From assembly GCA_031260975.1 (NCBI GenBank), contig JAISKJ010000001.1:5463-69462 (forward strand): DNA of 64,000 nt, written 5' to 3'. The notes beneath the pieces were generated by a model. The model saw nothing but the letters and a program-made list of their open reading frames with translations, was not told where the DNA came from and made no database searches. Below are positions 11,953 through 62,533 of this stretch, piece by piece. How positions within the stretch are numbered: position 1 is the first letter of the stretch; every line of letters starts with the position of its first letter. Position numbers and translations under genes: made by a program. This stretch comes from Christensenellaceae bacterium (GTDB lineage Bacteria; Bacillota; Clostridia; Christensenellales; UBA1242).

Positions 11953-11980
11953 GCTTCTCCTTTTTTACCATCCCTTTCCA

Positions 11981-12110
11981 CCACAAAACAATTACGCAGA
12001 CCACGCAGTGGTCAAAACCCCAATGAGGGAGTATTCCTGTGTAATCCCACTCCATTCTTGGTTTTGCAAAATTGTTTAAACGAACAAATTGAAGCTTTTG
12101 GCACCAACTG
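11981..12110. repeat. intergenic repeat copy G (module 1 core plus a module-2-like segment) in the leader of 10534..11952
   Basis: cacaaaacaattacgcagaccacgcagtggtcaaaacccc aligns with copies at 13081 and 33921. tgcaaaattgtttaaacgaacaaatt aligns with 13210, 27399 and 46898. Confidence 0.5.
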
Positions 12111-12244
12111 TCATTAATAAATAATTATATCGCAAAACCCGATTATTATCAACTAAAAAATCAAAATCCCCTCTTCTTTCCTTCACTATAAGGATGTAAA
12201 TTGCTGTTTTTATGTTTGTACTTATCACAGGCAACAAAAAATAC

Positions 12245-12273
12245 ACATAAAAAGCAGGGCTACAGCCCTGCTA
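12245..12273 (-). terminator. rho-independent terminator overlapping the stop codon of 12271..13017
   Basis: AGCAGGGC-tgt-AGCCCTGCT, then TTTTT on the minus strand. Confidence 0.7.
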
Positions 12274-13017: not shown

Positions 13018-13063
13018 CTATGCTCCTTTTAAAAAACAATCACCACTTTTCTTCACTTCTCTA

Positions 13064-13288
13064 GTGTGATGTAAACCTGTCACTGAACAATTCTGCAGAC
13101 ACCTAAGATACATAAAAGCCTGCCTCTATTCTCTCTTTATATGTGCTGCAATGTGTTATGAAATTATGAGTGCACATAAAATTTTACACTTTCATTAACT
13201 GCTTGTTGCTGTAAAATTTTTGAAACGAATAATTCCATAACACATGTCGCAGCCAAAAGCCTAGTGAAGTGACAGGTGCACAACACAC
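13064..13288. repeat. composite palindromic element A (module 1 hairpin carrying a nested module 2 hairpin)
   Basis: Outer arms gtgtg..cctgtcact (13064-13084) pair with agtgacagg..cacac (13268-13288). Inner arms 13145-13165 pair with 13231-13253. Confidence 0.6.
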
Positions 13289-13345
13289 CTTTATATCTAT
13301 TTTAGTTTAAATATCGGTTTTTAGTCAAGTGTTTTGCTTTGGTTG

Positions 13346-13358
13346 TATAAATTTTATA
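13346..13358. promoter_or_regulatory. 6-1-6 AT palindrome TATAAAtTTTATA upstream of rubrerythrin (PerR/Fur-box-like candidate)
   Basis: The palindrome is read directly. The functional link rests only on the known PerR control of rbr genes in Firmicutes. Confidence 0.25.
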
Positions 13359-13447
13359 TCTCGGGCAATCATTAAATATCAGGCGCACCTTTAAAATATA
13401 CATTGTCATTTCATAAAAAAGGGCTGCGACACAAAATGGAGGATTAT

Positions 13448-16405: not shown

Positions 16406-17130
16406 TTAAAATTCCTTTGTCTGACAATTTCATAAACTATCGCACTTGCAGCACTGCCTGCGTTAAGCGAATTTATCTTGCCAAACTGCGGCAAGCTAAT
16501 TAATCCGTCGCAAAGCTTTCGGGTGAGCGTACTTACACCCTTGCCTTCGTTTCCAATTACTATCGCAATAGGCCCCACACAGTTTGTCTTATATATAACT
16601 TCACCGTTCATAGCGGCAGCATAAACCCAGAAGCCGTCTTTTTTAAGATGCTCTATCTCGGTGTGAATATTTGTAACCTTTGCAATTTTCATGTGCGAGG
16701 CCGCTCCGGCGCTCACCTTTAAAACCGTAGAATTTACAAGAGCCGAGCGTTGCTTTGGGATAACTATCCCATGCACACCCGCGCATTCACAGGTTCTTAT
16801 AATACTTCCCAGATTATGAGGGTCCTCAATGCCGTCAAGAATCACAACAAAAGGCTGCTCGCCCAAATCTGAGGCAAGCTTTTTCATATCACTCACTTCG
16901 CTGTATACAAACTCGGTGACCTCGGCCACAAAGCCCTGATGCCGCCCGCTTTCACTCAACCTGTCCAGCAGCTTTTTGTCAGAAAACGAAATTCGTATCC
17001 CGCGCTCCTTGGCTTCGGTTATTATATTTTCGCCAAGCTCATCATGATGGCCCACCTGCACTACAAGCTTATTAAAGGTAGTCCCCGCCAAAAGAGCTTC
17101 ATAAACACTATTTTTGCCCTCTATAATCAT
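16402..17130 (-). CDS. rlmB: 23S rRNA (guanosine-2'-O-)-methyltransferase RlmB/TrmH family
   Basis: SpoU-type motifs ILDGIEDPHNLGSIIRTCE, IVIGNEGKGVS and LNAGSAASAIVYE. Confidence 0.85.
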   Translation of the reverse strand: MIIEGKNSVYEALLAGTTFNKLVVQVGHHDELGENIITEAKERGIRISFSDKKLLDRLSESGRHQGFVAEVTEFVYSEVSDMKKLASDLGEQPFVVILDGIEDPHNLGSIIRTCECAGVHGIVIPKQRSALVNSTVLKVSAGAASHMKIAKVTNIHTEIEHLKKDGFWVYAAAMNGEVIYKTNCVGPIAIVIGNEGKGVSTLTRKLCDGLISLPQFGKINSLNAGSAASAIVYEIVRQRNFK

Positions 17131-17528
17131 TCTTTTTCTCCCAACCTCAAAATCTCTTTAAGTCGCTCGCTTTGGCCACTCACAAACAAATACCCGAGCA
17201 ACGCTTCATAGGCCGTTGATTTCATATATTCACTCAAACTCGCCTTTTTGCTGGGGGCGTTAACTTTGGTGTTGCGCGCACGCCTGACCAAATCCTGTTC
17301 ACGTTCGGTCAAAAATCCTTCAAGCTTATCAAGAACCTCACTCTGAGCGGTAGCCTTAACCTTAAGCACACTTTGCTTGTGAAGGCTTCCGCTTTTGGCG
17401 GTAGAGCCTATAAACACACATGATTTTATAAACAAACCATAAACTGCGTCCCCCACAAAGGCCAGGCTTTGCGGGTTCAGCATAAAAGCATCCCTTTCTT
17501 CAAGCGTCTTTTTCAAAAATATGTCCAT
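17127..17528 (-). CDS. mrnC: mini-ribonuclease III
   Basis: LAFVGDAVYGLFIK and AYEALLGYL, size 133 aa, plus synteny with rlmB and sigH. Confidence 0.85.
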   Translation of the reverse strand: MDIFLKKTLEERDAFMLNPQSLAFVGDAVYGLFIKSCVFIGSTAKSGSLHKQSVLKVKATAQSEVLDKLEGFLTEREQDLVRRARNTKVNAPSKKASLSEYMKSTAYEALLGYLFVSGQSERLKEILRLGEKE

Positions 17529-26497: not shown

Positions 26498-26934
26498 GCT
26501 TGCCTCCTTTTGTGTTTTTTAAAATATCTCAGGCTAAATCTTTCATCTTTCGCTTTTTGTTTAATTTGATTGTTTTTAAAGTTTTTTATGTATCGCAAAA
26601 ATATTTTGCCTGTACTCCAATTATACCACTTAAAAAGACGATTGTAAAGTAGTTGTAAACCCGCTTTCACAATCTTTCCTCCCAACTTATTCATCAGGAA
26701 AAAACCCAGCAGCATAATGGCTGCAGTCATGACGCCGATTTTGCCGTAGTCACAAAAATTTACGGCCCACACATAAGCAAAACCACAAAACACAATAAAG
26801 GCGAAATCAAATACGTGCCCCAAAACTTTTACACATCTCAAAAAATACAGCGCATTAAATCCAAGCGCAAGCAAAGCCCCCATCCAGAGCATAAAAAAGA
26901 ATATCCAAATTTGAGTCTCGGTTTCAAACAGCAT
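26494..26934 (-). CDS. yabQ: spore cortex biosynthesis protein YabQ-like
   Basis: Multi-TM protein of 146 aa. Assigned by its position between yabP and divIC. Confidence 0.6.
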   Translation of the reverse strand: MLFETETQIWIFFFMLWMGALLALGFNALYFLRCVKVLGHVFDFAFIVFCGFAYVWAVNFCDYGKIGVMTAAIMLLGFFLMNKLGGKIVKAGLQLLYNRLFKWYNWSTGKIFLRYIKNFKNNQIKQKAKDERFSLRYFKKHKRRQA

Positions 26935-27200
26935 TATTTTACAAGTCTCTTAAAGAAGTTGGTTTTGTCGCGAGCAGCGGTGTATTTAAGTTCATTTATC
27001 TGCCCCGCAATATCAATAAAGCCGCCGGCCACATCCAGCCGATCAACATGCATACCCATACCAAAAATATTGAGCATACACCCCGACACAACAATGCAAA
27101 TTCTGCTCTCGTTTGCGCCTATCACCTTTTCAAGCCCCGTAACGCTCAGGTTTGTCCTGTTTACAAGTTTAAGTTCGCTTTTCTTTGTTTCTTCCGGCAT
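26934..27200 (-). CDS. yabP: sporulation protein YabP
   Basis: LVNRTNLSVTGLEKVIGANESRICIVVSGCMLNIFGMGMHVDRLDVAGG is a typical YabP core. GGGAGGG lies before ATG 27200. Confidence 0.8.
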   Translation of the reverse strand: MPEETKKSELKLVNRTNLSVTGLEKVIGANESRICIVVSGCMLNIFGMGMHVDRLDVAGGFIDIAGQINELKYTAARDKTNFFKRLVK

Positions 27201-27243
27201 ATAACCCTCCCAAGTCAGCGCGTCTTTACACACGCCTTCAACA

Positions 27244-27275
27244 TATAGTTATGTTTCCGTAAAATCAATTATGCA
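27244..27275 (-). promoter_or_regulatory. candidate sigma-E type promoter for yabPQ
   Basis: On the minus strand: GCATAAT, 14 nt, CATAACTA. This resembles the Bacillus sigma-E consensus (ATA-rich -35, CATACA-T -10). Confidence 0.35.
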
Positions 27276-27334
27276 AATGGGGCTCAACTAAGAAACAAAA
27301 ATATCCGTAAACATCCTTTTAAATCTGTAAAATC

Positions 27335-27441
27335 ATTCATTGTAAGACATCAAATTTATGAGAGCACCAAAATTTGTGCGTTGAAGCGCAGCGGTTTAGC
27401 AAAATTTTGGAAAAGAATAAATTTGATGTCTTACAATGAAT
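27335..27441. repeat. long hairpin element B (module 2 family)
   Basis: Perfect 24-bp arms attcattgtaagacatcaaattta (27335-27358) and its reverse complement (27418-27441). The 59-nt interior has further pairing, ccaaaattt with aaattttgg. Confidence 0.75.
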
Positions 27442-27477
27442 CATCTTTGGGATTCAAAGGGGCAAGGCCCCTTGCAG

Positions 27478-27508
27478 GGGATTAAAAAGGGAGCACACGC
27501 CCCCTTTT
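27478..27508 (-). terminator. rho-independent terminator after 27516..28139
   Basis: AGGGGG-cgtgtg-CTCCCT, then TTTTT on the minus strand. A second GC hairpin lies at 27457-27475. Confidence 0.6.
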
Positions 27509-27515
27509 TGCTTAT

Positions 27516-28139
27516 TTATTCCTCATCATGCCCGCAGCAGCCGCACCCGCAGTGGTGGTGATAATGTTCACCCCCGCAACAATCGTTTCCGTCATCAGGC
27601 AGCGCCCACACATTTATGTCAAGCATTTTTATCTCAAATCCCGGATAAGCTTTAAGCAGCGTCTCATCATCAGGCAAAAACGGCAGTCCCTCGTTTTTTA
27701 AGATTAAGCTTTCAACCTCGTCGTCAAGCTTATCCTGCAAAAGCTGCATGCACTCGCCAATGCTCGCTATATCCTCAACCGAACAAAATTCAAATCCGGG
27801 CAAAAAACCTACAAACTTCACTTCGCCGTCTTTTGTTTCATTCTTTACCATAGCGGGATATGCCGCCACCATAAGAGTGCGCTTAACCAGACCCGGCATA
27901 CGTACTATATCTCCAAAGTCCTGCTCTTTTGCGACTGTTTGTGATTTGGCTTTTGTTTTGGCCTTCTTTGCCTCTGCCTTTGTGTTCTGCGCTTTAGCTG
28001 ACTTGCTCATTTTGACCCGCTGCGGTGCGGCCTTAGGCTGCTGTTTTTTGGTCTGCGCGCTTACATTTTGTTTTTTGACAGCACCAGCCTTTACATTTCC
28101 TTTTTTAACGTCAGTATTTTGAATTGTTCCTTTACTCAT
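27516..28139 (-). CDS. Lys-rich protein with a HicB-like core and a Cys/His-rich C-terminal tail
   Basis: Start at MSKGTIQ, preceded by AAAGGAGAA. The tail is CCGGEHYHHHCGCGCCGHDEE. Confidence 0.7.
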   Translation of the reverse strand: MSKGTIQNTDVKKGNVKAGAVKKQNVSAQTKKQQPKAAPQRVKMSKSAKAQNTKAEAKKAKTKAKSQTVAKEQDFGDIVRMPGLVKRTLMVAAYPAMVKNETKDGEVKFVGFLPGFEFCSVEDIASIGECMQLLQDKLDDEVESLILKNEGLPFLPDDETLLKAYPGFEIKMLDINVWALPDDGNDCCGGEHYHHHCGCGCCGHDEE

Positions 28140-38097: not shown

Positions 38098-41000
38098 TTA
38101 ATGGCTGAATTCTATATATGTTATACGTTTGTTAACATCGTTCAGAGTATGCATAAAGCGGCTTGCAATAAGCCCCGAAACATTAGAGAACAAACTTGAA
38201 TCAAATGTAACCGCTGAGCTTAGGCGTATTTCTATGCCGCTGATTAAGTTAAAGTTTGGAAGCGCTGCATAAGCATTAATCAATGCAGTAAGCTCAACCT
38301 TGCTTTCAATATAGTGATCAAGCCCCACCTGCCCTGTATAGTTTGCATAATAGTTGTGACTTATCGTGGTATTGTTTCCTATCTTATATGTTGCAGTGTG
38401 CAGCGTCATTTCGGTATCGTTAGATAAGAAGTATGCGTGATTTGCAATTGCAGTACTGCCTCCGTTGTCTCTGATAACACCCCATGTTGCATCCACCCAA
38501 TAATAGTTGCCGCCTATCCCAACTTCATTCCATGCATGATTGCCACCGCTTGCTGTTCCGTTTACCTTGGTGGCGTATATACCTTCAATACGGCAAAGTA
38601 GCACAAACGCCTTGGCAATTCCGTCACAAACCGCAATCTGACTGTCTAGGTCAAGGAATATACTTTCAAGATAAAACACACTGAAGTTTCCCCATGAACT
38701 AACTGTGAAGTTTCCTATGCTCTGCATAAAGCCATACAGCACAATGTCATAACTCACTCTGTTGACCAAATATCTATATATATTAAGCGTCTTTTCATAA
38801 TCAGTCAGACTGTTACTGTTGTTAATCTGTTCAAGTACAATCCTTGCGTTCTGGTATACAGCTTCGGCAACGCTCCCCGCCTCAATATTTGGTCTTGTGC
38901 CATACTGCACTGCCATAAATAGTTGCTCGGTGTTATAAACCGGCAACACAGGAGTTACGCTGTCAATTGCAAAGACTCTGCTGGTGGGCAATGCCGTCTC
39001 ATAGCCCGCATTAAACGTTGTTACTTTAGTAGCCTGAAAGTGTGTGTCTTTCCATGCATCCAACCCGCTATACCAAGCAGGTTTGGGGCTTATCCCCAAA
39101 TAATAATCTTCAATCCCCGCCGTAGTAATTATCCTGTCTTTGTCAAGATAATATACAAATCCGGTTACTATATATACCCGGCTTATGCCTGTAGTGTTAA
39201 CTGTAAGTGAATAAGTCAGTCCGTCATACTCGGGATAGCTGCTTCTGAAAATGTTTACTATTGTGTTATTGAGCGTGCCGCCCGACCATGGGTTTGCAAG
39301 ATAAAATCTCAGTGTTGTCTTTTGATATAAAATAGCATGGTGAATAAGCAGTTCAAGTTCTTGTTCATCTTCTATATAATAGTCTTTAATCTCACCATTC
39401 ATAACATACTTGGCCCGCACAAAATGCTGAACGTCGGTCATAGAAAACATATAAATCTCAGTCTGGTCAAAAATCTTATCAAGTTCTGTGTGATGTCCGC
39501 CTATGTCAAGTGCGTCATTATAAACAATAACCCTCACTTGATAGGTGCCGTCGGCCCACAAATACTGTGTCAAATCCAAACTTGTTTTGGGGCCGTTATA
39601 AACTTCTATACCGTCCACAAATACCGCCATGCCCGTGCTCGTCCCCGTTTGAATTTCCATAAAATCAGTGGTGGTGCTGTCAATATTCTGCACACTCATA
39701 TAAACCGGCGGGTCATAGAAATTTGAACTCAAAACTATTGTTACATTAAGCGTATAAGTTTCTATAAAAATTTCATCAACTCCGTCGCCGTCAAGGTCAT
39801 AAGAGATAAATACCGTCATCAGCACCAGCGCTATTGTATAGTCTGACCCCGAAAAAGCCGTTTGAAGAGCAACTAGGTTTGTAACAGTTAGAGTGTATGT
39901 GTCGTCACTGTCGTCATAGGGTGTGCTGTTGTCGTTGTGAACAATTGACACATTGCTCAAAATCGCAGAGGTATTATTTATTGGGTCAAGCTCAAACGTA
40001 ACATGCTGAATGTCGTTGTCAGTGGTTCCATCATTGTCAAAGTCTACACTCGGGTCATGGTCACCCGTAGAATCTAGATATATCGCATATCTGTTTTGCT
40101 GAGACTGAAGATAGGAATTTATGTCATTTAACACAACCTGCAACAAGTCCGGCCCGTTGCTTTGAACTCCAAGATTATTCTCAAGAATAAACTCAATGGG
40201 CGCAAACGTAATAGTCTTGGTTATATCAGCAGCTCCGCCGCCCGTAAAGTATATAGTCATATTAACGTCAACACTGAACGAAACAGTCATTTCATAAGCT
40301 TTTAACTGAATTATGTTGTTAACAACTCTATGCTGCACTCTGTCAGCATCAACTCCCGTTATGCTGTTTACAACAACACCAACAACTGTCTGACCGTGCT
40401 TGCCATTAAAGCTATCCAGACTATACCATGTGTTGTCGCTTGGCAGTGTAACACTTGCGCTTTGGTTAATCGTCACGTCCCCGCTGCCCCAAACCGAATT
40501 CAAAACAACTTTCATTTCTATAGTATAAGTTATCACATACTTTACCTCAGCCGCGTCATAAACCGGAACATGAATAAGCACCGGCAAAATAATGTAGTTT
40601 ACGTTGGGATTTGCCAACAGAATTGAGGCATAGTTTATAGCAAGCGTATAGTTGTCTCCGCTCAAATTAATTTGAGCGTCGCCCGGACCAAGGTTGGTGC
40701 CCGTTCGGTCAACCTCAAACGGGTTAGTTCCGCTAAGGTCAGCATACAAAATTGCCTTTTCAATATAATCAGCAAGCAAATCGTCATGGCCCAAAGTGTC
40801 AAATCCGTAGGTCTGGGTTATGATGAGGGGGTTAAGCAATCTTGTTTGGTCTCCAAGCCCCATCTCATCGTCTAAAAACCAAAAGGTATCAAGATTTGGC
40901 TCAACGGTTATAACTTTGGTAATTATTACTTCAGCCCCGTCAACAAAGTGAAGAGTTACAACAAGCGTCACTTGATATTCTTCAGTAGCTTCAAAGCCTC

Positions 41001-44000
41001 TCACCTTCAAAATGTTGCCGGTTGTAGTATAATCCACCCTACCGGCATAAGTGCCCTGTTTTGATACGTTTATATAACTAAGCCTTGCGCTCTGTCCGTG
41101 AAGGTCAATATCAAGCGTATTATAAACTCCGTCGCCCGTAATTGCTATGTCAGAGTTACTCAAAAGAGTTATATCTTGTTCACTCCACAGGTTATTTAAA
41201 ACTATGACGCATGGCAAGCTGACTTCTTTTGCGCTCAGCACGGCCCCGCCGCCAAGGTTAACTTCTGCAATAACAGTCCTGACATAAATCTTTATCTCGT
41301 TAGTTCCCGTAAAGTTGTTTATCAAAAGCATAGGGTCACCGCTGTTATATACGATTTTAACAAGCCCCACAAAACCTGCATCAACAAGGCCTTGCAGGTT
41401 ATTAAACCCTGCACTAATGAGATTTTGTGCACTGACAGATAAGGCAGCAACAACGCCTGCATCAACAAGATTCTGTGCACCAATAACTCCGATATCAAAA
41501 AGGGTCTGCACATTTATGAGAGTTTGCAGATTTATGCTGCCGGCAATAAGGAAGCCTTCGTCAATAAGGCGCTGCTGAGTGGTAAGCCCCTTATTAATAA
41601 GAGTTTGCGCCGTAACAGTTGTAGAACTGATAACGCCCTTATTAACAAGACTTAGCGCATTAATAATTCCGACATCTATAAGCTCCTGCACATCTATAAG
41701 CTGCTGTATATCAATAAGCCCTGCAGCAGTAAGACTTCCTGCGTCAAGCTGATAGGTAATCTCGCTAGGACTAACACCGGTAAGTCCGTTAAACATTTCA
41801 AATACTGTATTAAGGTCAATTCCGCCAAGGTCGGGCGCGTCAATCACGGCCTTGCCGGTAAATACTCCGTCCGCTTCATGCTGATAAGCCCCATCTATGT
41901 CAAGGCTGAAAGGTGTTGTAAAGAGTATATTGTGATAAGCAATACTGAAGCTGCTGAGCCCTATTTTTAATCCCACAACCACAGTTGTGTTAGATGGGAT
42001 ATCCTGCAGAACTTCTATCATAAGATTTCCATCCAGCGCAAACACTCCGCCACCTGATATGCTTAAGTTGATAAGTCTGCTGAGTGTTACGTTGCTATAC
42101 CCGCCCTGAACAACATTGTTCATCATAACAGGTGTGCCATTGGCGGCTGTAATATTAAAGTTTATTCGGTTAAACAGGTTCACCACAGCGCTTTCTGACC
42201 CGACATATTCTGTTGCTGTATCTGTTTCAGAAGCGGTTATCTCAAAGCCGTAAACCGTGAAAGTATATGAAGCCACAGCCTCAGTGTAAACCTGCCATGA
42301 ATAAGTAGTTGTTCCGGTATACACAAATCGTCCGTTTCCGCTGGCGGGCCTCACAGTAACAACAATTTCATATCCGTTTACGTTATAAGGAACATTGCCT
42401 ATCACCAGAATATATCTGCTGCCGTCAAAAATCACATTAGCTATCGAGGTATCAACATTCAGTTCAAATATCGGGGTCATACCATCCACAACGCTTCCGC
42501 CAAGCTCGCTATAAAACCTGTGTTCAAGAGCCGTTAGGTCCACAACAGTTCCATTGAATGTTGTGGGTAAGCCTTCAACCGCTAAATTCCACACAATGCT
42601 GCCGCCTGAGTTCATATTGGCAGCCCAAATGCTCTTTGAACTGCTGCCCTCAGACACACTGCCGTTATAAAAGTCCAGCACCGCTGCTTTTATAACTCTA
42701 TCCTCAACGGTCATAAAATAATCTTTAATAGCTGTATATTCACTTCCATACTGAGCACCTACTGCAATTTTAAATATCGCCGGAACAGAAGTTGTAGTGT
42801 TACCGTTGTTATATTCAATGGTGTCAATATCTCCTATATCAATTTTATAGCTATATCCTATCAGAGTACCCGTGGCAGGATTTCCGTTGTCATAAACCTC
42901 TGTCCAGCTGTTAATGTCAAGGCTTAACTTGCCGCCGTTTTGCAAAATTCCATAAGCCGAACTATAGCTTACGTTCAGGCTCATAAAACCCGTTCCAACC
43001 ATTTGTGTCAAAAGACCAATCGGAGTACTTGTATTTTCAACCGACAGCACCAGATAATATGTTTCACTCTCAGCTACCGTAAGAGGCAGATATACCGTAG
43101 GATCTCCTGCGCCGCTGTCAATCTGATCAAGCTTGACACCTGCTCCGTCGGTCAAATAAATATTAAGCTGATCAATCTTGTTAGTCACCACTACACTCGT
43201 TTCGGCTGACTTATATTGAATATAATCACCGTTTATGTCTCTTATGTTGGCACCCTGTCTGGTTGTTGCCACAATCACAGCATAAACCCTAAACTCACCG
43301 TAACCCTTTGCACTGAAAGTAGCATCGGTAGCATCAATCAGTCCTGTTGAGCTGTTAAACTGTTCGTTTGGAACATACAGCGTAATCCATCTGTTGGTGT
43401 TTACAAAGTCTTTATCCTTAACCTTAAGGTAGGGGTAAGTATTATATACTATTGATGGTGCAACACCGACGCCCTCATAGAACTTAACGTTGCGCATAAT
43501 TTCGGGGTTACCCAAAACATGGTTAACGCTGTCGGCAACTGAAGACTGTCCGCCCGAAGTGGTTATGGTAATGTCATTGCCATATTGTGCCTTAACCCAA
43601 TCGGTAAGGTTGCTTGCACTGTCAGCCCATGTAAATGTAATACTTACATTGCTGGGGTTGGTCAGCCCCTCACACACTGCCCTAATACGTCCGCTCGCCC
43701 CTACCAGCGCACTCGTTCCGATTACGCCGCCGGTTGTGTTGTCAGTGTTAATATAATGCCACGAAACATTAGCAAAGCCAACACCGCCCTGCATAACCTG
43801 AGGGCCGATGCCGTCGGTCTTAACAAAGTCAAACGTAGTTTTATATGTCCCTGCAGCTGACGGAATATAGTCAATGTCAGCCGGATTTAGATAGAACATA
43901 AGATTTGAGAATGTAATAATTCCGCTGCCGTCATCCTGAATAGTTACATACTTCTGACCGGCCTGAGAGCCACCCAACGACAGCTGCTCGGGGTTTTGGG

Positions 44001-45348
44001 TTATATCCTTGCTGCCGTCAATCACAAAGTTATTCATGCCCTTATAGTTTATATTCACTATGTCTATGCCCGGCAGTCTGGGTTTTATGTTCACAGTTAT
44101 AGTCTTTTCAATAAGCGTCCCTTCAAAGGTAGTAAAGCTTGCCTTAAGCGTCACGTTAAGTCCAACGGGGCTCAGCATAGCCGCATCAAAATTAATCGGT
44201 TCCACACGCCACTTGGTGCCTGTCCCCGAGGTGCCCGCAACTTTGGTTATGTTAAGATATGTGGTATCCTGCTCGGTGATTGTCACTCCGCCCAAAAACT
44301 TATCTAGCACACTTGCGTCATAGTTGTTGTCAACAGGAATGAGCCTGAGACCAAAGTTTGGCAAAGAGTTGTCGGAGATATAAGCCAGAAAATCCGTTTC
44401 TTCATAAAGGTAAAGCGGCAAAACACTGCCTGTTGCTTCAAGGTCGTCAACTCTCACATCCTGAACCGCAAATTCTTCGATGGAAGTCATTACAAAAAGG
44501 TCAGTTGAACGCTCTCTTAAAAGACCAAAAATATCAGCATTTGAATAAGTGCTGTAATAATCGTTATCCTTAAAGTTTTTAAACATACAGGCCTGAACAT
44601 AAAAATATCTCTGTTCATCGCGCACCTGCAAAACTGTATTGCTTGTCACCTGCGTGCTGTTTATGGCATTTATCCAAGGTTGGCCGTTGATGCTAAACCC
44701 TGCCACATTGCTACCTGTGTTAAGAAGCATGCTTCCTGCGTTGTCTTCAAGCAAAAAATAGTATATCGTTTTGTTTCGGTCAAAGGGACTAACTCCTACA
44801 TCTAAATGACCGGGGTTTCGCGCGTTTGACGGAAGCACTTCAATGCGACTGTTAAAAAAGCCGTCAAAATTCACCCATGAGTTGAGAGAAAAGATATTGT
44901 TGTCAAAATCATCAAACCCTAACTCATTGGCAGTAGTGTCCACATAAATTACCAATTCCTGAGATTGCACAAGCTGATTCTCGGTATAGGCCGTAATTCG
45001 GGCCACTCCGCCGTGGTTATTCCCGTTTTGGTCTTTGGTTGCAAAAACCTGAAAGTGCCTGCCAACTTCCGCCGTAGGCGGCACCTGCAAAACCTCAGGC
45101 TTGTCTACCCTGAGCATAATTTTGGTTTCAGTCACATCCGCCGTAGTTGTAATAACAAGCAAGTCAAACCCGCCTGTTATGATTGTGCCGCTGCTTGTCG
45201 TAAAACTCAAATCGTGCGGAGCTACAACCGGTTTATTGTTGCCAAACAACAACACTCCGCCAAAAATCAAGGCAAACGCACCTACAACGCAAGCAGCCAC
45301 AATTCCCACAACCTTAAGAACTTTTTTGGCGCTTAATTTTACTGCCAT
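38098..45348 (-). CDS. giant (about 2416 aa) membrane-anchored surface protein with a C-terminal transglutaminase-like module
   Basis: Uninterrupted 7.3-kb ORF with AAAGGAGGAG before ATG 45348. N-terminal TM VVGIVAACVVGAFALIFGGVLLF. C-terminal IAVCDGIAKAFVLLCRIEGIYATKVNG...NHAWNEVG...WVDATWG. Confidence 0.9.
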   Translation of the reverse strand: MAVKLSAKKVLKVVGIVAACVVGAFALIFGGVLLFGNNKPVVAPHDLSFTTSSGTIITGGFDLLVITTTADVTETKIMLRVDKPEVLQVPPTAEVGRHFQVFATKDQNGNNHGGVARITAYTENQLVQSQELVIYVDTTANELGFDDFDNNIFSLNSWVNFDGFFNSRIEVLPSNARNPGHLDVGVSPFDRNKTIYYFLLEDNAGSMLLNTGSNVAGFSINGQPWINAINSTQVTSNTVLQVRDEQRYFYVQACMFKNFKDNDYYSTYSNADIFGLLRERSTDLFVMTSIEEFAVQDVRVDDLEATGSVLPLYLYEETDFLAYISDNSLPNFGLRLIPVDNNYDASVLDKFLGGVTITEQDTTYLNITKVAGTSGTGTKWRVEPINFDAAMLSPVGLNVTLKASFTTFEGTLIEKTITVNIKPRLPGIDIVNINYKGMNNFVIDGSKDITQNPEQLSLGGSQAGQKYVTIQDDGSGIITFSNLMFYLNPADIDYIPSAAGTYKTTFDFVKTDGIGPQVMQGGVGFANVSWHYINTDNTTGGVIGTSALVGASGRIRAVCEGLTNPSNVSITFTWADSASNLTDWVKAQYGNDITITTSGGQSSVADSVNHVLGNPEIMRNVKFYEGVGVAPSIVYNTYPYLKVKDKDFVNTNRWITLYVPNEQFNSSTGLIDATDATFSAKGYGEFRVYAVIVATTRQGANIRDINGDYIQYKSAETSVVVTNKIDQLNIYLTDGAGVKLDQIDSGAGDPTVYLPLTVAESETYYLVLSVENTSTPIGLLTQMVGTGFMSLNVSYSSAYGILQNGGKLSLDINSWTEVYDNGNPATGTLIGYSYKIDIGDIDTIEYNNGNTTTSVPAIFKIAVGAQYGSEYTAIKDYFMTVEDRVIKAAVLDFYNGSVSEGSSSKSIWAANMNSGGSIVWNLAVEGLPTTFNGTVVDLTALEHRFYSELGGSVVDGMTPIFELNVDTSIANVIFDGSRYILVIGNVPYNVNGYEIVVTVRPASGNGRFVYTGTTTYSWQVYTEAVASYTFTVYGFEITASETDTATEYVGSESAVVNLFNRINFNITAANGTPVMMNNVVQGGYSNVTLSRLINLSISGGGVFALDGNLMIEVLQDIPSNTTVVVGLKIGLSSFSIAYHNILFTTPFSLDIDGAYQHEADGVFTGKAVIDAPDLGGIDLNTVFEMFNGLTGVSPSEITYQLDAGSLTAAGLIDIQQLIDVQELIDVGIINALSLVNKGVISSTTVTAQTLINKGLTTQQRLIDEGFLIAGSINLQTLINVQTLFDIGVIGAQNLVDAGVVAALSVSAQNLISAGFNNLQGLVDAGFVGLVKIVYNSGDPMLLINNFTGTNEIKIYVRTVIAEVNLGGGAVLSAKEVSLPCVIVLNNLWSEQDITLLSNSDIAITGDGVYNTLDIDLHGQSARLSYINVSKQGTYAGRVDYTTTGNILKVRGFEATEEYQVTLVVTLHFVDGAEVIITKVITVEPNLDTFWFLDDEMGLGDQTRLLNPLIITQTYGFDTLGHDDLLADYIEKAILYADLSGTNPFEVDRTGTNLGPGDAQINLSGDNYTLAINYASILLANPNVNYIILPVLIHVPVYDAAEVKYVITYTIEMKVVLNSVWGSGDVTINQSASVTLPSDNTWYSLDSFNGKHGQTVVGVVVNSITGVDADRVQHRVVNNIIQLKAYEMTVSFSVDVNMTIYFTGGGAADITKTITFAPIEFILENNLGVQSNGPDLLQVVLNDINSYLQSQQNRYAIYLDSTGDHDPSVDFDNDGTTDNDIQHVTFELDPINNTSAILSNVSIVHNDNSTPYDDSDDTYTLTVTNLVALQTAFSGSDYTIALVLMTVFISYDLDGDGVDEIFIETYTLNVTIVLSSNFYDPPVYMSVQNIDSTTTDFMEIQTGTSTGMAVFVDGIEVYNGPKTSLDLTQYLWADGTYQVRVIVYNDALDIGGHHTELDKIFDQTEIYMFSMTDVQHFVRAKYVMNGEIKDYYIEDEQELELLIHHAILYQKTTLRFYLANPWSGGTLNNTIVNIFRSSYPEYDGLTYSLTVNTTGISRVYIVTGFVYYLDKDRIITTAGIEDYYLGISPKPAWYSGLDAWKDTHFQATKVTTFNAGYETALPTSRVFAIDSVTPVLPVYNTEQLFMAVQYGTRPNIEAGSVAEAVYQNARIVLEQINNSNSLTDYEKTLNIYRYLVNRVSYDIVLYGFMQSIGNFTVSSWGNFSVFYLESIFLDLDSQIAVCDGIAKAFVLLCRIEGIYATKVNGTASGGNHAWNEVGIGGNYYWVDATWGVIRDNGGSTAIANHAYFLSNDTEMTLHTATYKIGNNTTISHNYYANYTGQVGLDHYIESKVELTALINAYAALPNFNLISGIEIRLSSAVTFDSSLFSNVSGLIASRFMHTLNDVNKRITYIEFSH

Positions 45349-45430
45349 AACTCCTCCTTTGTGTAGTATGAGCAAGTTGCCTACCCGTTATTATAAAACG
45401 ATAAAATGCCATATAACTATATACAATATA

Positions 45431-46883: not shown

Positions 46884-46941
46884 GGTCACACTTTAAGTAT
46901 AAAATTTTTGAAGTAAATGATTTTATACTTAAAGTGTGACC
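46884..46941. repeat. hairpin element C (module 2 family) in the 5' leader of 45611..46861
   Basis: Perfect 22-bp arms ggtcacactttaagtataaaat (46884-46905) and reverse complement (46920-46941). The 14-nt loop is ttttgaagtaaatg. Confidence 0.75.
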
Positions 46942-47790: not shown

Positions 47791-48564
47791 TTATCTTGAT
47801 CTAAAACTGAAATTATAAACATCCCCGCCGCTGAGCGTAAGAGTAATTGCATTTCCTTCAAACGTAATTACATTGTCACCTTGGTCGGTGAAGTTTGCCG
47901 TCACATATCTATAACCCAAACCAAACAAGTTATAATCAATTTCGCCGGCAAGAGATACAATTTCAGAGCTGCCGGTCTTTAGGGCAAGAATACCGCCCAG
48001 AGTTGAAAAGCTTATGCCTAAAGCATTTGTAGTGTCAACATCGCTTGACTGCAGCTGATAAATACTTGCGCCCGACAAAAGATACTCCTCTTTTATGCAG
48101 TCAGTAGTAGTCAGCAGATAATGGGCAAATCCCTGCGACAAATCAATGCCGCTGTCTATGATCGTTTGCTGGTCACTTTCGGTGATTTTACGATAAACAG
48201 TTTTATATTGCTCAGCAAAACCCTCTGTATCCTCAAAGGTAGCATTTTCAAACACAATCCTGCTTGTTAGCTGCCCTCCGGCAAAATTAAACTGTTCGCG
48301 ATGCCATGTGGCGCCAAGATTACTATACTCTATTTTGGCGCTTTGATATTTTTGAGTGCTATAATCTTCAAGTATACTCTGATAGGCCTCTCTTGCAGCT
48401 TCTCCTTCAAGAGCTATGTCTTTATTAAGACGGTTTAGCGAAAATACCACAAACGGGATAAGTATGGCTAAAATCAATACAACCGCAACCATAGTAAGAA
48501 TTGTGTTTTTGTATGCATCCAACACTATGGGCTTAAGTGGCCGCTCTTCTTTCTGCTTTTTCAT
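47791..48564 (-). CDS. single-pass membrane protein, unknown extracytoplasmic domain
   Basis: 257 aa with TM ILTMVAVVLILAILIPFVVF. Its start overlaps the stop of the upstream gene by 4 nt. Confidence 0.75.
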   Translation of the reverse strand: MKKQKEERPLKPIVLDAYKNTILTMVAVVLILAILIPFVVFSLNRLNKDIALEGEAAREAYQSILEDYSTQKYQSAKIEYSNLGATWHREQFNFAGGQLTSRIVFENATFEDTEGFAEQYKTVYRKITESDQQTIIDSGIDLSQGFAHYLLTTTDCIKEEYLLSGASIYQLQSSDVDTTNALGISFSTLGGILALKTGSSEIVSLAGEIDYNLFGLGYRYVTANFTDQGDNVITFEGNAITLTLSGGDVYNFSFRSR

Positions 48565-51500
48565 TTGCCGCCTCCCTTGTTTGGTTTACCTTTGCTGTTA
48601 ATCTCCTTTTCTATCCTGTCAAGAATATCATCTATGGTGTCTTTTTCAGCTGTCTCTTCTTCTATAACTTCTTTTATGACCTCAGCCGCGCTCTGCTCAG
48701 CCTCTTTTGATTTTGAAACTTTTGCCGCCTTTTCTTTGACCTTTTTGGGTTCAGCCTCACTCTTGGTTTCGGCTTTCTTATCTTCTTTGGGCTCTTTGGG
48801 TTTAGCGGGCTTTTTCTTTTTTGCTTCAGCTTTTTTATTGCTTTCTGTTTCAGCGGGCAATTCCTCCGCTTTTTTACTGTCTTCAACCTGTGTCAAAGTT
48901 GTTTCCGATTGTGTTGATGCTGTTTCCAAAACTGCGGCATTGTTTAAATCTTCTGCTTTGTTTTCCTTCGGTGCTTCCAGACTATCTTCTGCCGCACCAA
49001 TATCCTGAGTTTCAGTGGCAACACTTCCGCCGCCCAAAACAACTGTCTCTTCATTATCCTGAGTTCCAGACTGTGCCGTCACTTGAGCCTGAGCTTCTTC
49101 CTGCGGCCAATATTCAGTTTCCGCATTTTCCATTGGTTGTTGAGGCTGCACAAAATTCTGTGTTTGCGGCTCCCATGTTTGTTGCGGCTGCCACTCCTCA
49201 GTCTGCCGGGGCAGTTCAGCCGGCCCTACATACGCGTTAAAATTATCATCAATATCTGTTTGCGACGTTTCTTGAACTGCTGCATCGCCAACTGCAGCCT
49301 CACGGCTGCGGGCTAAATCCTCACGCGCCTGCGTAAAGCTTTGTTTGGTTTTGTTTTCTTCCAAAATTTTATTCAACGCTTCGGGGCCTGACGCTCCGTG
49401 AGTTCCGTGCAGGTTACCCTCCTTGTCAAACGACAGCCACAGCCGCGGATCCTCTTCACCGCCGTCCGTTGGCTCAAAACATTTATACAGTCTTATATAT
49501 ATAGTAAGCTTATAGGCAGCAAGTGCACCGACAACAGTCAATATTATAAGCACACCATACTCATGGGCAAACCATGTGTTTTGATAGTCACCGAATATAA
49601 GACCCAGCAATGTTGCAAACGCCGCTATATATAAACCGGCTCCTATGCCCAGATTTGTTATGCCGTGCCGTCTTATCGGCCTAAGTTCCTTGGCAGTATG
49701 CGGCTTTTCATCAAAACTCCCGCGGGCCAGCTTCTTATATAATAAGATATTAGAAATCTGCAGGCCCAAAATGCCGAGTATTACAATGCCCATCAACACT
49801 ATCAAAACATAATGCCCCAAAAGCATAGCCACGAAACCTGCAAACAGTTCGGCCAACCACCAAAGCTGAGCACTTGCAACACCTATCTGCTGCAAAACAT
49901 TATGACCGCTAATAGTCTGAATAATTCCGATAGCAACAAACAGTGCAAGAACTACCCAAAGTACTATGGTTATAATCGAGGTGATAAGCAAGGCATTTTT
50001 GGAGTAGTTGTTTTCCATCTGATAGCTGTTATGCCTTATGATTGCTCTCTTTTTTGAACCTACTTTGGCGCGCCTCGTCAATACCGCAATTAAAATACAT
50101 GAGAGTGCAAAGAAGAATTCTACAACACCAAGCACAATCATACCAAGCTCAAAGTCACCAAGGCTTAGGACCAACAAAGCCACAACCAGAGCTAATGAAA
50201 ATACTGCATATATAATGCTGTTTCGTCTTATATTCATAGCAAAACGTTTATCTACAATGTTTTGTGCCGCAAGCACCTTATATTGCATCACCGAAATATC
50301 TATCAAAAATGCTACAACCATAACAGCCAGCACAACTACCAGAATTGCTCTTATTATATCAATCTCAAACAAGGCAAATCCCATAAAGGTCTGCCCACCT
50401 GATCTAACCAGCGGCAAAAAGAGTGACAGAAGCAGCACAACCGAAAGACATGTTGCAATAGCAATAGGATTGTCATTTGTTGTATATATATTCTTTATAT
50501 ACTGCGGCTTGCCATTCGACCCTGCTGCTACAGCAGTTGCAGCTGCGGCTGCCTGAGCATCATGGCTCTGGCCCTCAAAACTGTTGAGGTCATAGCTTGC
50601 AACTTCCTTATTGGGTTGCGTGAGCACTTCAGTCTGAAGCGGCTCTGCCTCGGGCTGAGTTACTTCCGGCTGATATACACCTGCTTCTTCTGTTGATTTA
50701 TCAACAAACGCAACAGGTTCCTCATTAAACAAGCTGTGCTGCCCCACAATGGGAGTATTAAGCTCTTCTTCACTTTGCACCACACGGTTATCCTGATATA
50801 TAACCGTCCAACCTTCGGCGTTTGCAGGCTGACCCTCTGCTTGACCTATAGACTGCATTTCGGTCTGAACAGGCTGAGACATAAACTGCTCAGTCGTTTG
50901 AACCTGCGGACCTACAAAATTAAGCTGCTCCTGTATCGGCGCCGAAATTTTGTCAAAGTCGCTTTCCTTGTTTTCGGCAAGCATAGCGTCACCCCTTATA
51001 GTGCCGCTACTTGGCGTCATTGTGTCAAAATATTCACTAAGACTAGTACCGCCCCCAGCAGTAAGGTCTGTTCTGCCTCCGGTGTCAACATCAAAAGAGC
51101 CCGTTTGGTTTTTATCTTCATACGGAAGTGCGCTCTTAGACGGTGCTGTGTCCGAATTATAATCTATCTGCTTGCGCTCAGGCTTAAATAGATCAGGGTC
51201 TATGTTCATATCAGGCATATCATATGCCGTCATGTCATATTCATTGATACCTATGCGGCTTATGTCCTCGCTGGATATCACATCATCCTGATAATCCTCT
51301 TTGACGGGCGCATATTCCCGCTTGGCAGAAGTGCGATTTTCCAAGCTGCGGACAGCCTTTTGAGGCACAACAGTATTTTCCTCATCCTCCAAAACTGCCC
51401 GTCTGATTTTTTCATTTGTTACCACCTGCTCCCAAAGCGGCGATTGTGAATCGCGGACTTTTGACACTCTGGCTCGGCTCTTGGGCTTTTTGCTCACGCG

Positions 51501-52136
51501 CTTTTGGGGTTTAGGTTCAGTTTTTGTCTTCTTAGAGCTCCTGCGTCCGATAGGCACATACATTTCTCTCTCGATTGCCACATATTCACCATCATCTTTG
51601 GCATGAACCCGCACACGCGGAGGCTTTTGCTCTTCTTCTTCATCTGCATCCAAATATCTGCTGGCAGGCTTTCTGCTGCGCCTAATTATGTCTCTTGGAA
51701 CATACTCCTCCTCAGGTTCTTCATCAAGCTCTTCTTCATAAGGCTCTTCATATTCCTCTTCTTCAGTTTCTGGTTCTTCTTCGTCATATCCCTCTTCAGG
51801 CTCATATTCTTCTTCAAGTTCTTCGTCACTAAAAACTTCCTCATCAGAATATCCTTCATCGGGCCTTCCTTGATATTCACTACTGTCAGGGTCAAAAAAA
51901 GTGGCCTCGGGGTGCACAAAAACATAGTCTTCTATAAAAGTCTTAGAAAACACTTCTTTAATATCCAATTCATAAAAATCTGTAAGTTTCTTCAGCTGCT
52001 CTGCCTGAGGAAGCGTATCGCCTCGCGCCCATTCCAGATAGTCATCAAGAGACACTCCCGCAGCGTCCACCAAAGCCCCAATACTTAGCCCGGCAACTTC
52101 TCTTAGAAACTCTAAGTTTTTGGCAAGAATATTCAC
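48561..52136 (-). CDS. 1191-aa protein: N-terminal XRE-like HTH, acidic low-complexity region, polytopic membrane domain, and a Gln/Glu/Lys-rich tail
   Basis: HTH-like NLEFLREVAGLSIGALVDAAGVSLDDYLEWARGDTLPQ. About 10 hydrophobic helices lie between residues ~560 and ~900. GTG start. Confidence 0.8.
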   Translation of the reverse strand: MNILAKNLEFLREVAGLSIGALVDAAGVSLDDYLEWARGDTLPQAEQLKKLTDFYELDIKEVFSKTFIEDYVFVHPEATFFDPDSSEYQGRPDEGYSDEEVFSDEELEEEYEPEEGYDEEEPETEEEEYEEPYEEELDEEPEEEYVPRDIIRRSRKPASRYLDADEEEEQKPPRVRVHAKDDGEYVAIEREMYVPIGRRSSKKTKTEPKPQKRVSKKPKSRARVSKVRDSQSPLWEQVVTNEKIRRAVLEDEENTVVPQKAVRSLENRTSAKREYAPVKEDYQDDVISSEDISRIGINEYDMTAYDMPDMNIDPDLFKPERKQIDYNSDTAPSKSALPYEDKNQTGSFDVDTGGRTDLTAGGGTSLSEYFDTMTPSSGTIRGDAMLAENKESDFDKISAPIQEQLNFVGPQVQTTEQFMSQPVQTEMQSIGQAEGQPANAEGWTVIYQDNRVVQSEEELNTPIVGQHSLFNEEPVAFVDKSTEEAGVYQPEVTQPEAEPLQTEVLTQPNKEVASYDLNSFEGQSHDAQAAAAATAVAAGSNGKPQYIKNIYTTNDNPIAIATCLSVVLLLSLFLPLVRSGGQTFMGFALFEIDIIRAILVVVLAVMVVAFLIDISVMQYKVLAAQNIVDKRFAMNIRRNSIIYAVFSLALVVALLVLSLGDFELGMIVLGVVEFFFALSCILIAVLTRRAKVGSKKRAIIRHNSYQMENNYSKNALLITSIITIVLWVVLALFVAIGIIQTISGHNVLQQIGVASAQLWWLAELFAGFVAMLLGHYVLIVLMGIVILGILGLQISNILLYKKLARGSFDEKPHTAKELRPIRRHGITNLGIGAGLYIAAFATLLGLIFGDYQNTWFAHEYGVLIILTVVGALAAYKLTIYIRLYKCFEPTDGGEEDPRLWLSFDKEGNLHGTHGASGPEALNKILEENKTKQSFTQAREDLARSREAAVGDAAVQETSQTDIDDNFNAYVGPAELPRQTEEWQPQQTWEPQTQNFVQPQQPMENAETEYWPQEEAQAQVTAQSGTQDNEETVVLGGGSVATETQDIGAAEDSLEAPKENKAEDLNNAAVLETASTQSETTLTQVEDSKKAEELPAETESNKKAEAKKKKPAKPKEPKEDKKAETKSEAEPKKVKEKAAKVSKSKEAEQSAAEVIKEVIEEETAEKDTIDDILDRIEKEINSKGKPNKGGGK

Positions 52137-58689: not shown

Positions 58690-58893
58690 ACTTTTCTCCT
58701 TTTGTTTTCATATATTTTACTACAAAATAAAGTTTATTGCAAACGATTGCACACAATTTGTCAAACCTAGTCTTTTAAAAATCCTACCCCTCCTTATCAC
58801 ATAATGGTGCACAGTTTTGAGTTTTTATAAATGATAATAACGTATAAAAACTTTATATTGAAATGTAAAATGGTTTTATAAGATAAAACTTAT

Positions 58894-59122
58894 TTATCCA
58901 CAGTTGGCCTCATTTTTTGTGCACAAAATCTGTGAAACTCAAACATTTTGTCATACCCATTGTGGACAACTTTTGATTTTTTGTGGATAAGTGGATAACT
59001 TTTGTATAAAACCACCCATATATGCATGAAAATGATTAAACATAAACAATTTTAATATTTATAAATCATAATGAATAATTATACCATTGTGGATTGGTGG
59101 ATAACTTTTTCTGTTTTCCACA
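58894..59122. other. DnaA-box cluster with an AT-rich core (oriC-like or DnaA-binding element)
   Basis: Two perfect boxes: TTATCCACA at 58894-902 and TGTGGATAA at 58982-990. Four one-mismatch boxes: 58961-969, 58990-998, 59096-104 and 59114-122. An AT-rich stretch spans 59004-59086. Confidence 0.7.
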
Positions 59123-59202
59123 AATGCACAAAACATAACCCTAATTCCTCCAGAATTATACAATATATTGAATATATGTTAAAAGCTCTCACTTAACAAG
59201 CC

Positions 59203-61070: not shown

Positions 61071-61161
61071 GGAGAGGTACTCAAGAGGCTCAAGAGGATG
61101 CCCTGCTAAGGCATTAGTACGGGAAACCGTAGCGCGGGTTCAAATCCCGCCCTCTCCGCCA
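61071..61161 (+). tRNA. tRNA-Ser (anticodon GCU), CCA encoded
   Basis: Folded by hand. Acceptor GGAGAGG/CCTCTCC, anticodon stem ATGCC/GGCAT with loop CTGCTAA, long variable arm TACGG-gaaa-CCGTA, and T arm GCGGG-TTCAAAT-CCCGC. Confidence 0.95.
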
Positions 61162-61163
61162 TG

Positions 61164-61188
61164 AACCACAACATGTTGTGGTTTTTTA
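61164..61188 (+). terminator. terminator hairpin immediately after tRNA-Ser
   Basis: AACCACAAC-at-GTTGTGGTT, then TTTTT. Confidence 0.7.
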
Positions 61189-61240
61189 TTGAGTGGCACA
61201 AGATGTTGATTTAGAATTGTTACTATACAGAAAAAACCGA

Positions 61241-61293
61241 GGTAGAAAAATTGGTAGAAATGCAAAATTTTTGGTAGAAAAGATTTTTCTACA
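61241..61293. repeat. three direct GGTAGAAA repeats plus one inverted copy (candidate integrase arm-type sites)
   Basis: GGTAGAAA at 61241-48, 61253-60 and 61273-80. The inverted TTTCTAC overlaps the int stop codon. Confidence 0.55.
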
Positions 61294-62533
61294 TTTCAAA
61301 GCTTTTGTTCTTTTTTGCTTTTAATGCTACAAGTTCGGCTTCGAGACGGGCTATTTCGTTATCTTCATCAGTGGTAATTTTGTCTTCGAAAATTTTCATA
61401 ACTTGTTTTGCTGTTTCGGTTTTGGAGGTGGTATCCAGATGCGAATAAATATTTGCTGTGGTTTCGTAGGTACTATGACCAAGCCATTCCTGAATTTGCT
61501 TCATGGGGATTTTATATGCTAACAGTAGGCTTGCACAACTATGACGCAGTTCGTGAAAGCGGATTCTAGGTAAGCTTGTGTGTTTAATAATCCTATGGAA
61601 ATTATCGGAAAGGTATTGGGCTTTTAGCCGCTCACCCATGTCATTTATACAGATGTATTCTTGAAACTTTTTGGAGTATGCATTCTTGTATCTTTCTTTG
61701 TTTTCATTTTGTCTTTGTTTTTCATTAAGCAGAAGTTCTTTGATAAATGGCAATAGAGGATAGGAACGATAACTTGAATTGTTTTTTGTTGAGTCCTTAG
61801 CGAGCTCAATTCTTTTGCCGTCAATTTTAGTTTCTACAATAGTATGCTCAATCAAAATTTCGTTGGTGTGAAAATTGATGGCGTTCCAACGCAGTCCTAA
61901 AACTTCACTTCGCCTGAGTCCGTAAGCTACGGTTAGTTTGTAGATATAGTCATATCTATTTCTTTCGGTGGCTTCAAATAATACCTTTAACTGTTCGTAG
62001 TTGTAAAACTTTGAATTATACTTCGGGCTTCTTGGGCGTTCAATTTTATCTGCCGGATTAGAGGGAATAATTTCTCCGATTACAAGAGATTGCAGGCACT
62101 TTCGTATATTGACATGGAAATGTTCACAGACCTGTATGGACTTGCCTAAATCCTGCATATCTTTGTAGAACTTTTGCAGGTGAAATGGTCGCAGGTCTGC
62201 AACCTTAATTTGAATGGGTTTAAAATATTTCGTAATCTGTGCCACTTGCAATTTGTATGAGTTGTATGTAGTTGCCTGTAAGTTCCCGCGAAGGTTATCT
62301 AACCATAAATCCAGATACTCATGAAACATCAAGTCTTCAAGTGGTGATGATTCTCTCTTACTTTTGATTTCAAAATTGTTAAGTTCTTTGCGCAGCATGT
62401 CTTCTGCTTTTCTTTTGTTCCCTTTTTCATCAAGCCCGGTAGCTATCCATTTTTGTTTTGTGTTATCTTCTAAATCCTTGTATTTAATGACGGCATAATA
62501 TTTGCCGTTTTTTACTGCCAAATATCCGTTCAT
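61289..62533 (-). CDS. int: tyrosine-type site-specific integrase
   Basis: GLRRSEVLGLRW, HELRHSCASLLL and LGHSTYETTANIYSH (R..H-x-x-R..Y catalytic pattern). Confidence 0.9.
   Translation of the reverse strand: MNGYLAVKNGKYYAVIKYKDLEDNTKQKWIATGLDEKGNKRKAEDMLRKELNNFEIKSKRESSPLEDLMFHEYLDLWLDNLRGNLQATTYNSYKLQVAQITKYFKPIQIKVADLRPFHLQKFYKDMQDLGKSIQVCEHFHVNIRKCLQSLVIGEIIPSNPADKIERPRSPKYNSKFYNYEQLKVLFEATERNRYDYIYKLTVAYGLRRSEVLGLRWNAINFHTNEILIEHTIVETKIDGKRIELAKDSTKNNSSYRSYPLLPFIKELLLNEKQRQNENKERYKNAYSKKFQEYICINDMGERLKAQYLSDNFHRIIKHTSLPRIRFHELRHSCASLLLAYKIPMKQIQEWLGHSTYETTANIYSHLDTTSKTETAKQVMKIFEDKITTDEDNEIARLEAELVALKAKKNKSFEM

Follow-up and report, generated by a model that had tools for sequence, protein, structure and literature searches.

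How does a long, perfectly paired hairpin come to lie in the spacer between two bacterial genes, and does it have a function there? This is the question raised by an inverted repeat between yabP and the gene of a 207-aa protein in a Christensenellaceae bacterium, an uncultured spore-former that encodes GerA/GerAC-type germination proteins as well as YabP. We have analysed the repeat within a stretch of 64,000 nucleotides from one contig, hereafter the window, and compared it with contigs from more distant relatives and from a sister species, whose YabP is 77% and whose CYTH protein is 91% identical. The first-pass annotation of this DNA had described a family of hairpins with arms that differ between copies and a core that is conserved, and took this as a sign of selection for structure.

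The hairpin, B in what follows, is a perfect inverted repeat in which 25 of 25 arm positions are complementary, with 57 nt between them (Table 1). The perfect arms had been recognised before, but their size had been put at 24 bp and that of the interior at 59 nt. There is not one G·T pair among the 25. In the predicted folds the stem gives way to a 7x6-nt internal loop (GAGAGCA // GAAAAGA), then to an inner stem of 9 bp, in which ccaaaattt (27367-27375) pairs with aaattttgg (27402-27410), and finally to an apex in which 27377-27380 and 27387-27390 form a hairpin of 4 bp. Both inner pairings that had been suggested by eye, ccaaaattt with aaattttgg and tgcg with cgca, recur in these folds. On the outside the 25-bp stem has an abrupt edge, where complementarity drops from 100% to the 65% of the outer 20 nt. 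Taken together, the 45-nt arms, which reach outwards to 27315 and 27461, are 84% complementary.

Could such a hairpin have arisen by chance? The fold has z-scores of -9.5 to -10.2 against shuffled sequences on either strand, and a perfect stem of 25 bp has a chance expectation of ~1e-8. An exhaustive scan of the window for perfect stems returned B with 25 bp, a hairpin with 22 bp at 46884-46941 (C46) and then stems of 13 bp, most of which are terminator-like hairpins. The fold scores and the scan of stem lengths together show that B is a real feature and not a chance one. An assembly artefact is also unlikely, because B lies within the interior of a 77-kb contig and a second assembly, possibly of the same sample, is identical. 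A minus-strand ORF of 35 codons that spans B exactly was considered and rejected, as it has no Shine–Dalgarno sequence and its frame is not common to the related copy at 13100-13253. Nor does B look like an intrinsic terminator, with a stem of 20% G+C, a 57-nt interior and the tail GAUUUUAC.

Table 1. Features of the hairpin locus, its relatives in the window and the neighbouring genes and signals (positions in the window)
Feature	Position	Strand	Description
B left arm	27335-27359	.	25 nt, ATTCATTGTAAGACATCAAATTTAT; perfect complement of 27417-27441
B right arm	27417-27441	.	perfect complement of left arm; stem without G·T pairs
B interior, 57 nt	27360-27416	.	from folds; resembles 13168-13228
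B outer left-arm extension, decayed	27315-27334	.	13/20 complementary to 27442-27461
B outer right-arm extension, decayed	27442-27461	.	13/20 complementary to 27315-27334
B-locus repeat unit (left flank, left arm, interior)	27285-27420	+	alignable to 13100-13232, score 28; nhmmer profile
A13, related copy	13100-13253	+	imperfect hairpin in ~275-nt 5′UTR of CYTH-domain gene
D12, related fragment	12055-12097	+	matches 3′ part of B interior and start of right arm
C46, separate 22-bp perfect hairpin	46884-46941	-	5′ end of mRNA; not a sequence relative of B
yabP, 88 aa, downstream of B	26934-27200	-	PF07873
207-aa gene upstream of B	27516-28139	-	no Pfam domain; Cys/His-rich C-terminus
Intrinsic terminator of 207-aa gene	27484-27509	-	AAAAAGGGGGCGTGTGCUCCCUUUUU on minus strand; 11-bp stem and U-tract, from fold
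sigmaE-type promoter of yabP	27246-27273	-	GCATAATT-13 nt-CATAACTA; kept in three species, from alignment

Two tests bear on whether B belongs to a family. In the first, the 74-nt interior of B was compared with all other spacers of the window, using dinucleotide shuffles as the null. The best match was the spacer at 13018-13402, which holds A13; its score of 22 was reached in 0.3% of the shuffled sets (p ~0.003). The second match was the spacer at 11953-12270, which holds D12, with a score of 19 that was never attained as a shuffled second-best. The remaining spacers scored 14 or less, that of C46 scoring 13. In the second test, local alignment of whole inserts was compared with a null. Here 13100-13232 aligned with 27285-27420 at a score of 28 (null maximum 21), and 12060-12097 with 27393-27432 at a score of 20 (null maximum 16). 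Each of the three possible pairs has a shuffle p-value of 0.005 or less and is a reciprocal best match, and the strings that are shared, such as TTATGAG.GCAC and GAAA.GAATAA, are not of low complexity. The copies are only ~65-70% identical, and what similarity there is sits in the core and the left flank, not in the ends.

Judged from these alignments, the family in the window appears to comprise B, A13 and the fragment D12, three diverged copies. The relative that had been proposed at 13145-13253 is thus upheld. For the one proposed at 12065-12110 the sequence fragment stands (score 19-20, p<0.005; nhmmer E=0.054), but the hairpin does not, as D12 has no significant fold (z 0 to -1.4). The third proposed member, 46884-46941, drops out, its score being in the background of unrelated spacers. 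The first-pass annotation was right that a core is conserved between differing arms: two other loci share the core and have arms of their own. An nhmmer profile built from B and A13 found no more copies in the window, in a further 8 kb of DNA from the same genome or in ~90 kb from relatives. By-eye matches in the shared core to sigma70, sigmaH and sigma54 promoters, and to CodY, PerR, CIRCE and Spo0A boxes, were dropped, as none was consistent across the copies.

A13 is the more informative of the two relatives. Its hairpin (fold z ~ -5 to -6) has arms at 13151-13167 and 13229-13245 and an inner stem formed by 13178-13188 and 13210-13220, and it has a common layout with B, consisting of an outer stem, an internal loop, an AAAATTT inner stem and an apex of 21-25 nt. 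In both copies the internal loop has GAG[A/T]GCAC opposite GAAA[A/C]GA between flanking stems that differ in sequence, and AAAATTT boxes lie 32-35 nt apart. The two copies can also be aligned in their left flanks, and this flank is part of a palindrome only in B. We also note that an outer inverted repeat of 21 nt (13064-13084 and 13268-13288, 86% complementary) encloses the A13 hairpin, so that nearly the whole 5′UTR of the CYTH-domain gene is a nested quasi-palindrome. A second shared module of ~46 nt (13030-13075 and 12154-12200; score 20, p 0.005) is common to the two species-specific insertions that flank this gene, which suggests that the extra spacer DNA is modular.

C46, the other long perfect hairpin of the window, is a different case. 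It has a 14-nt loop and, like B, no G·T pair, here among 22. It begins a few nucleotides after a conserved promoter (TTGACT-17-TAGTAT), at most a few nt from the predicted transcription start, precedes the ribosome-binding site and leaves 22 nt to the ATG of the gene, which encodes a conserved protein of 416 aa without a Pfam domain; this position between promoter and ATG points to a 5′-terminal mRNA hairpin. C46 is in this respect like the 5′-terminal mRNA stabiliser hairpins of Firmicutes, which also lie near the transcription start and before the ribosome-binding site. B is unlike these, since it is not in the 5′UTR of a recognisable transcript. Compared with the copy at 13145-13253, C46 reaches only p=0.03, uncorrected. 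Relatives have different, unstructured 5′UTRs at its position, and a homology seen by eye between its arms and the UTR of the sister species was not significant.

Is B transcribed? The genes on either side are both encoded by the minus strand; in their direction, B follows a strong terminator and precedes, by ~60 nt, a conserved yabP promoter, which we take to fit the sigmaE consensus. The terminator was recognised from its fold, a consensus terminator scan of 27150-27600 having returned no site; it has a G·U pair on the minus strand, where the plus strand has an A·C mismatch, and is followed by a small G+C hairpin. Lying between a terminator and a conserved promoter, B is probably barely transcribed. 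It thus probably sits outside recognisable transcription units, in DNA that we would expect to be poorly transcribed. A weak promoter-like site on the plus strand at 27238-27265 is probably coincidental, since its sequence is that of the sigmaE promoter in reverse complement. On the far side of the terminator, the 207-aa protein ends in a Cys/His-rich tail (…CCGGEHYHHHCGCGCCGHDEE), and its gene adjoins yabP in the sister species too.

The orthologous spacers of relatives are informative about the age of the family. The B spacer is 315 nt long here and 211 nt in the sister species, 104 nt less, and the D12 spacer 318 nt against 106 nt; for these two the further relative is not comparable. The A13 spacer measures 385 nt here, 207 nt in the sister and 95 nt in the further relative. 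These three are the most expanded spacers with respect to the sister, the differences in the others being mostly below ~50 nt and in no case above ~70 nt. At the A13 locus a promoter (TTGACT-18-TAAAAT) is conserved and the 5′UTR that follows shrinks from its ~275 nt here to ~115 nt in the sister and ~25 nt in the further relative. The promoter at the D12 locus (TTGATA-17-TATAAT) is conserved as well; the extra DNA here consists of a species-specific insertion of ~135 nt in the 5′UTR, within which D12 lies, and of ~77 nt upstream.

None of the extra DNA at the family loci is significantly similar to the spacers of the sister. An alignment of the B spacer with its counterpart reaches only p ~0.1, and the homology seen by eye between the A13 UTR and that of the sister was not significant. 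The B-locus spacer of the sister has only the terminator and small stems and no hairpin, the presence/absence pattern at an orthologous site that is looked for in MITEs. The sister is without a hairpin at the A13 and D12 loci too. Three relatives in all lack the structure in their orthologous spacers, and ~90 kb of DNA from relatives contains no family motifs and no perfect stem of more than 13 bp. This absence indicates that the elements are young and lineage-specific and are not conserved structures. The family sequences would then have been added to the non-coding spacers of this species after its split from the nearest known relatives. Two long perfect hairpins in 64 kb, against none in ~90 kb of relatives, hint at something systematic in this genome. 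Among the coding sequences, two large minus-strand ORFs are kept in the sister at 53-68% identity: one of 2425 aa (38098-45375), whose homologue there has only a weak Transglut_core match, and one of 1191 aa (48561-52136) without a confident Pfam domain.

Searches of wider collections returned little. At gathering thresholds Rfam matches only a tRNA in the window, and at relaxed thresholds the best match over B is a plant miRNA model with 28.8 bits against a threshold of 144, which is long-hairpin noise; the earlier statement that this is not a known family agrees with the Rfam search. Two viral scans gave no match, and plasmid and phage collections had none to B in blastn. Scans for YabP in the GTDB representative genomes and JGI metagenomes found no relative, from which we conclude that the lineage is absent from these collections. 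It is thinly sampled in general: of 5.8 billion proteins, only three YabP homologues have words in common with the query. A consensus of the three cores had 120 matches in metagenomes, all of which a profile check showed to be chance. B therefore matches no known family, yet the kind of element is familiar, namely a palindromic interspersed spacer repeat or a corrected quasipalindrome.

Pfam scans of the window proteins that were scanned, in ~72 kb of covered genome, found no transposase and no Y1 or RAYT protein. A single recombinase, a phage-type integrase, lies 34 kb from B. It belongs to a series at 61071-62533 and beyond, in which a tRNA gene is followed by genes for a tyrosine integrase and an excisionase-like HTH_17 protein. 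G+C falls to 34% there, and the series is probably one border of an integrated mobile element. A little before this, the spacer at 58690-59202, flanked by a VanW gene and the gene for a 316-aa protein of unknown function, contains six TTATCCACA-type DnaA boxes in 230 nt (58894-59122), two of them perfect and four with one mismatch. As the GC skew keeps the same sign throughout the window, we describe this as a DnaA-box cluster and not as a demonstrated oriC.

What kind of process yields long, perfect arms that differ from locus to locus? Quasipalindromes become perfect through template switching (PMC7202029), and the same process has been invoked for perfect inverted repeats of bacterial genomes (PMC5941160). 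It also homogenises the arms of inverted repeats (PMC8604942). We see an even chance that B, as one copy of a small AT-rich family, is a lineage-specific, quasi-palindromic spacer repeat of this origin, perfected by template switching and without a dedicated function. During replication, intramolecular template switching would have turned an imperfect inverted repeat into a perfect one; one arm would be copied onto the other, which would make the arms complementary yet leave them free to differ between copies. The core itself may have arrived at the three loci by transposition or by ectopic duplication.

Several features of B point to such a DNA-level origin. In the absence of G·T pairs both strands are equally perfect, which is the signature of a process that acts on DNA, and C46 shares this property. 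The sharp step at the end of the stem, from 25/25 to 13/20, is the transition from perfect arms without wobble to imperfect outer arms that template switching is expected to leave. The left flank is shared with A13 and mirrored to the right only in B, so the palindrome appears to have grown outwards in B; this, and a site away from transcripts, argue in the same direction. The paralogous copy, A13, is imperfect. Because the spacer of the sister cannot be aligned, the ancestral, imperfect state of B is not visible, and template switching is inferred from the pattern only. The selection for structure proposed by the first-pass annotation does not hold up, as the hairpin is missing from the sister spacers, lacks G·T pairs and is outside obvious transcription units.

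B resembles corrected quasipalindromes, as in the Ripley model, in thyA and lacZ reporters of E. coli (PMC7202029) and genome-wide (PMC5941160). They too have no wobble pairs, and a perfect inner part that yields sharply to an imperfect outer part; the arm sequence may vary by locus and no protein or RNA function is required. However, the events described are usually shorter than ~15 bp, whereas B has 25 bp round a 57-nt spacer and a precursor that cannot be observed.

Other readings of B have to be weighed against this one. It is unlikely, in our view, that B is a non-autonomous mobile element (a MITE, foldback or hairpin element) moved by a transposase encoded elsewhere, whether of DDE type or a Y1/HUH enzyme acting on single-stranded hairpins, with A13 and D12 as decayed older copies. 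Such an element would account for the terminal inverted repeats (25 bp perfect, or 45 nt at 84%), the AT-rich, intergenic setting and length of 107-147 nt, the related copies, and the empty orthologous sites with a spacer excess of 104 nt that is close to the element length. However, there is no target-site duplication at the 107-nt boundary (...aaaatc/B/catctt...) or at the 147-nt boundary (...aaacat/../gcaagg...), the termini are the part that differs between copies of such low identity, and neither a transposase or Y1 gene among the scanned window proteins nor a copy in the further 8 kb of this genome or in relatives was found. By description, B is like MITEs and palindromic repeats such as Correia/NEMIS, ERIC/IRU, RUP and BOX in its size of 100-200 nt, its AT-richness and its intergenic, hairpin-forming nature. 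Such repeats frequently form part of transcribed UTRs, vary in their presence from one relative to the next and are modular; here, too, a second module is shared. They occur in many copies with conserved ends, and the true MITEs among them have target-site duplications; the B family has three copies at 65-70% identity, variable ends and no duplication. REP/REPIN-RAYT systems (Y1/HUH), which had been suggested as a model, share with B two inverted units of ~25 nt that lie ~60 nt apart and form one long hairpin. Their arms are the conserved part, however, and they number tens to hundreds of copies beside a RAYT gene, whereas the arms of B and A13 are the variable part, the copies are three and diverged, and no Y1 or RAYT gene was seen in the scanned proteins, so the idea gains no support. 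It is very improbable that B is a DNA regulatory site, either a symmetric operator or cruciform for yabP or a phase-variable switch inverted between its 25-bp repeats. The sigmaE-type promoter nearby, the perfect symmetry and the regularly spaced AAAATTT boxes in B and A13 are what one would look for in such a site, but relatives that conserve the yabP promoter have no B upstream of it, and 25 bp of perfect symmetry is far beyond the needs of an operator. For an invertible switch, a 57-nt spacer is atypically short for recombinase-mediated inversion, the scanned proteins include no invertase nearby and the two available assemblies are identical.

Could B be an RNA? A structured RNA, acting in cis as a stability or processing hairpin of yabP or read-through transcripts, or forming a plus-strand sRNA from ~27272 to a bidirectional terminator at ~27510, is distinctly unlikely. 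Either strand folds very stably, B and A13 share their stem and internal-loop architecture with conserved loop sequences, A13, D12 and C46 all lie in 5′UTRs downstream of conserved promoters, and the promoter-like site at 27238-27265 is on the appropriate strand. Set against this are the missing Rfam match, the lack of conservation in any relative, the absence of G·U from 25 bp and the location of B between a terminator and a conserved promoter; the plus-strand site itself probably owes its form to the sigmaE promoter on the other strand. Conserved internal loops between differing stems are nevertheless also the look of a selected structure. We allow a small chance that B and A13 belong to an undescribed structured class, in which the loops (GAG[A/T]GCAC // GAAA[A/C]GA) and the AAAATTT stem would be recognised and the outer stem would be free in sequence but perfectly paired. 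This could be, for example, a DNA or RNA hairpin acted on by some unknown enzyme specific to hairpins and spreading in the lineage, or a new RNA. It is equally improbable that there is no family at all and that the similarity of B, 13100-13253 and 12055-12097 is a compositional coincidence of AT-rich spacers with AAAATTTT tracts, which would leave B as a one-off palindrome. In plain BLAST the family similarities of 28-30 bits are equalled by several unrelated pairs of window spacers, the nhmmer E-value of D12 is only 0.054 and the three-way consensus has 120 chance matches in metagenomes. This would leave unexplained the shuffle p-values and reciprocal best matches of all three pairs, the matching strings that are not of low complexity and the fact that the three copies lie in precisely the three most expanded spacers.

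If B is a spacer repeat perfected by template switching, any effect would be incidental at most. It might insulate the sporulation promoter from the operon upstream, or hinder read-through from one to the other. RNA that reads through B would form a very stable double-stranded stem, which could block further read-through or serve as a substrate for RNase III, and the DNA could extrude as a cruciform. We note in this context a 133-aa protein with a single RNase III domain, of Mini-III type, at 17127-17528 on the minus strand, since long double-stranded stems are candidate substrates of enzymes of this family.

The finding would be of greater importance only if the complete genome held many copies or a dedicated enzyme. 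If the template-switching reading is true, B is a clean natural case of long perfect palindromes arising and persisting in bacterial spacers without selection, and a caution against taking arms that are variable but complementary as proof of a functional RNA. It would also mean that the UTRs and spacers of a poorly sampled lineage of spore-formers expand through the addition of hairpin-forming DNA.
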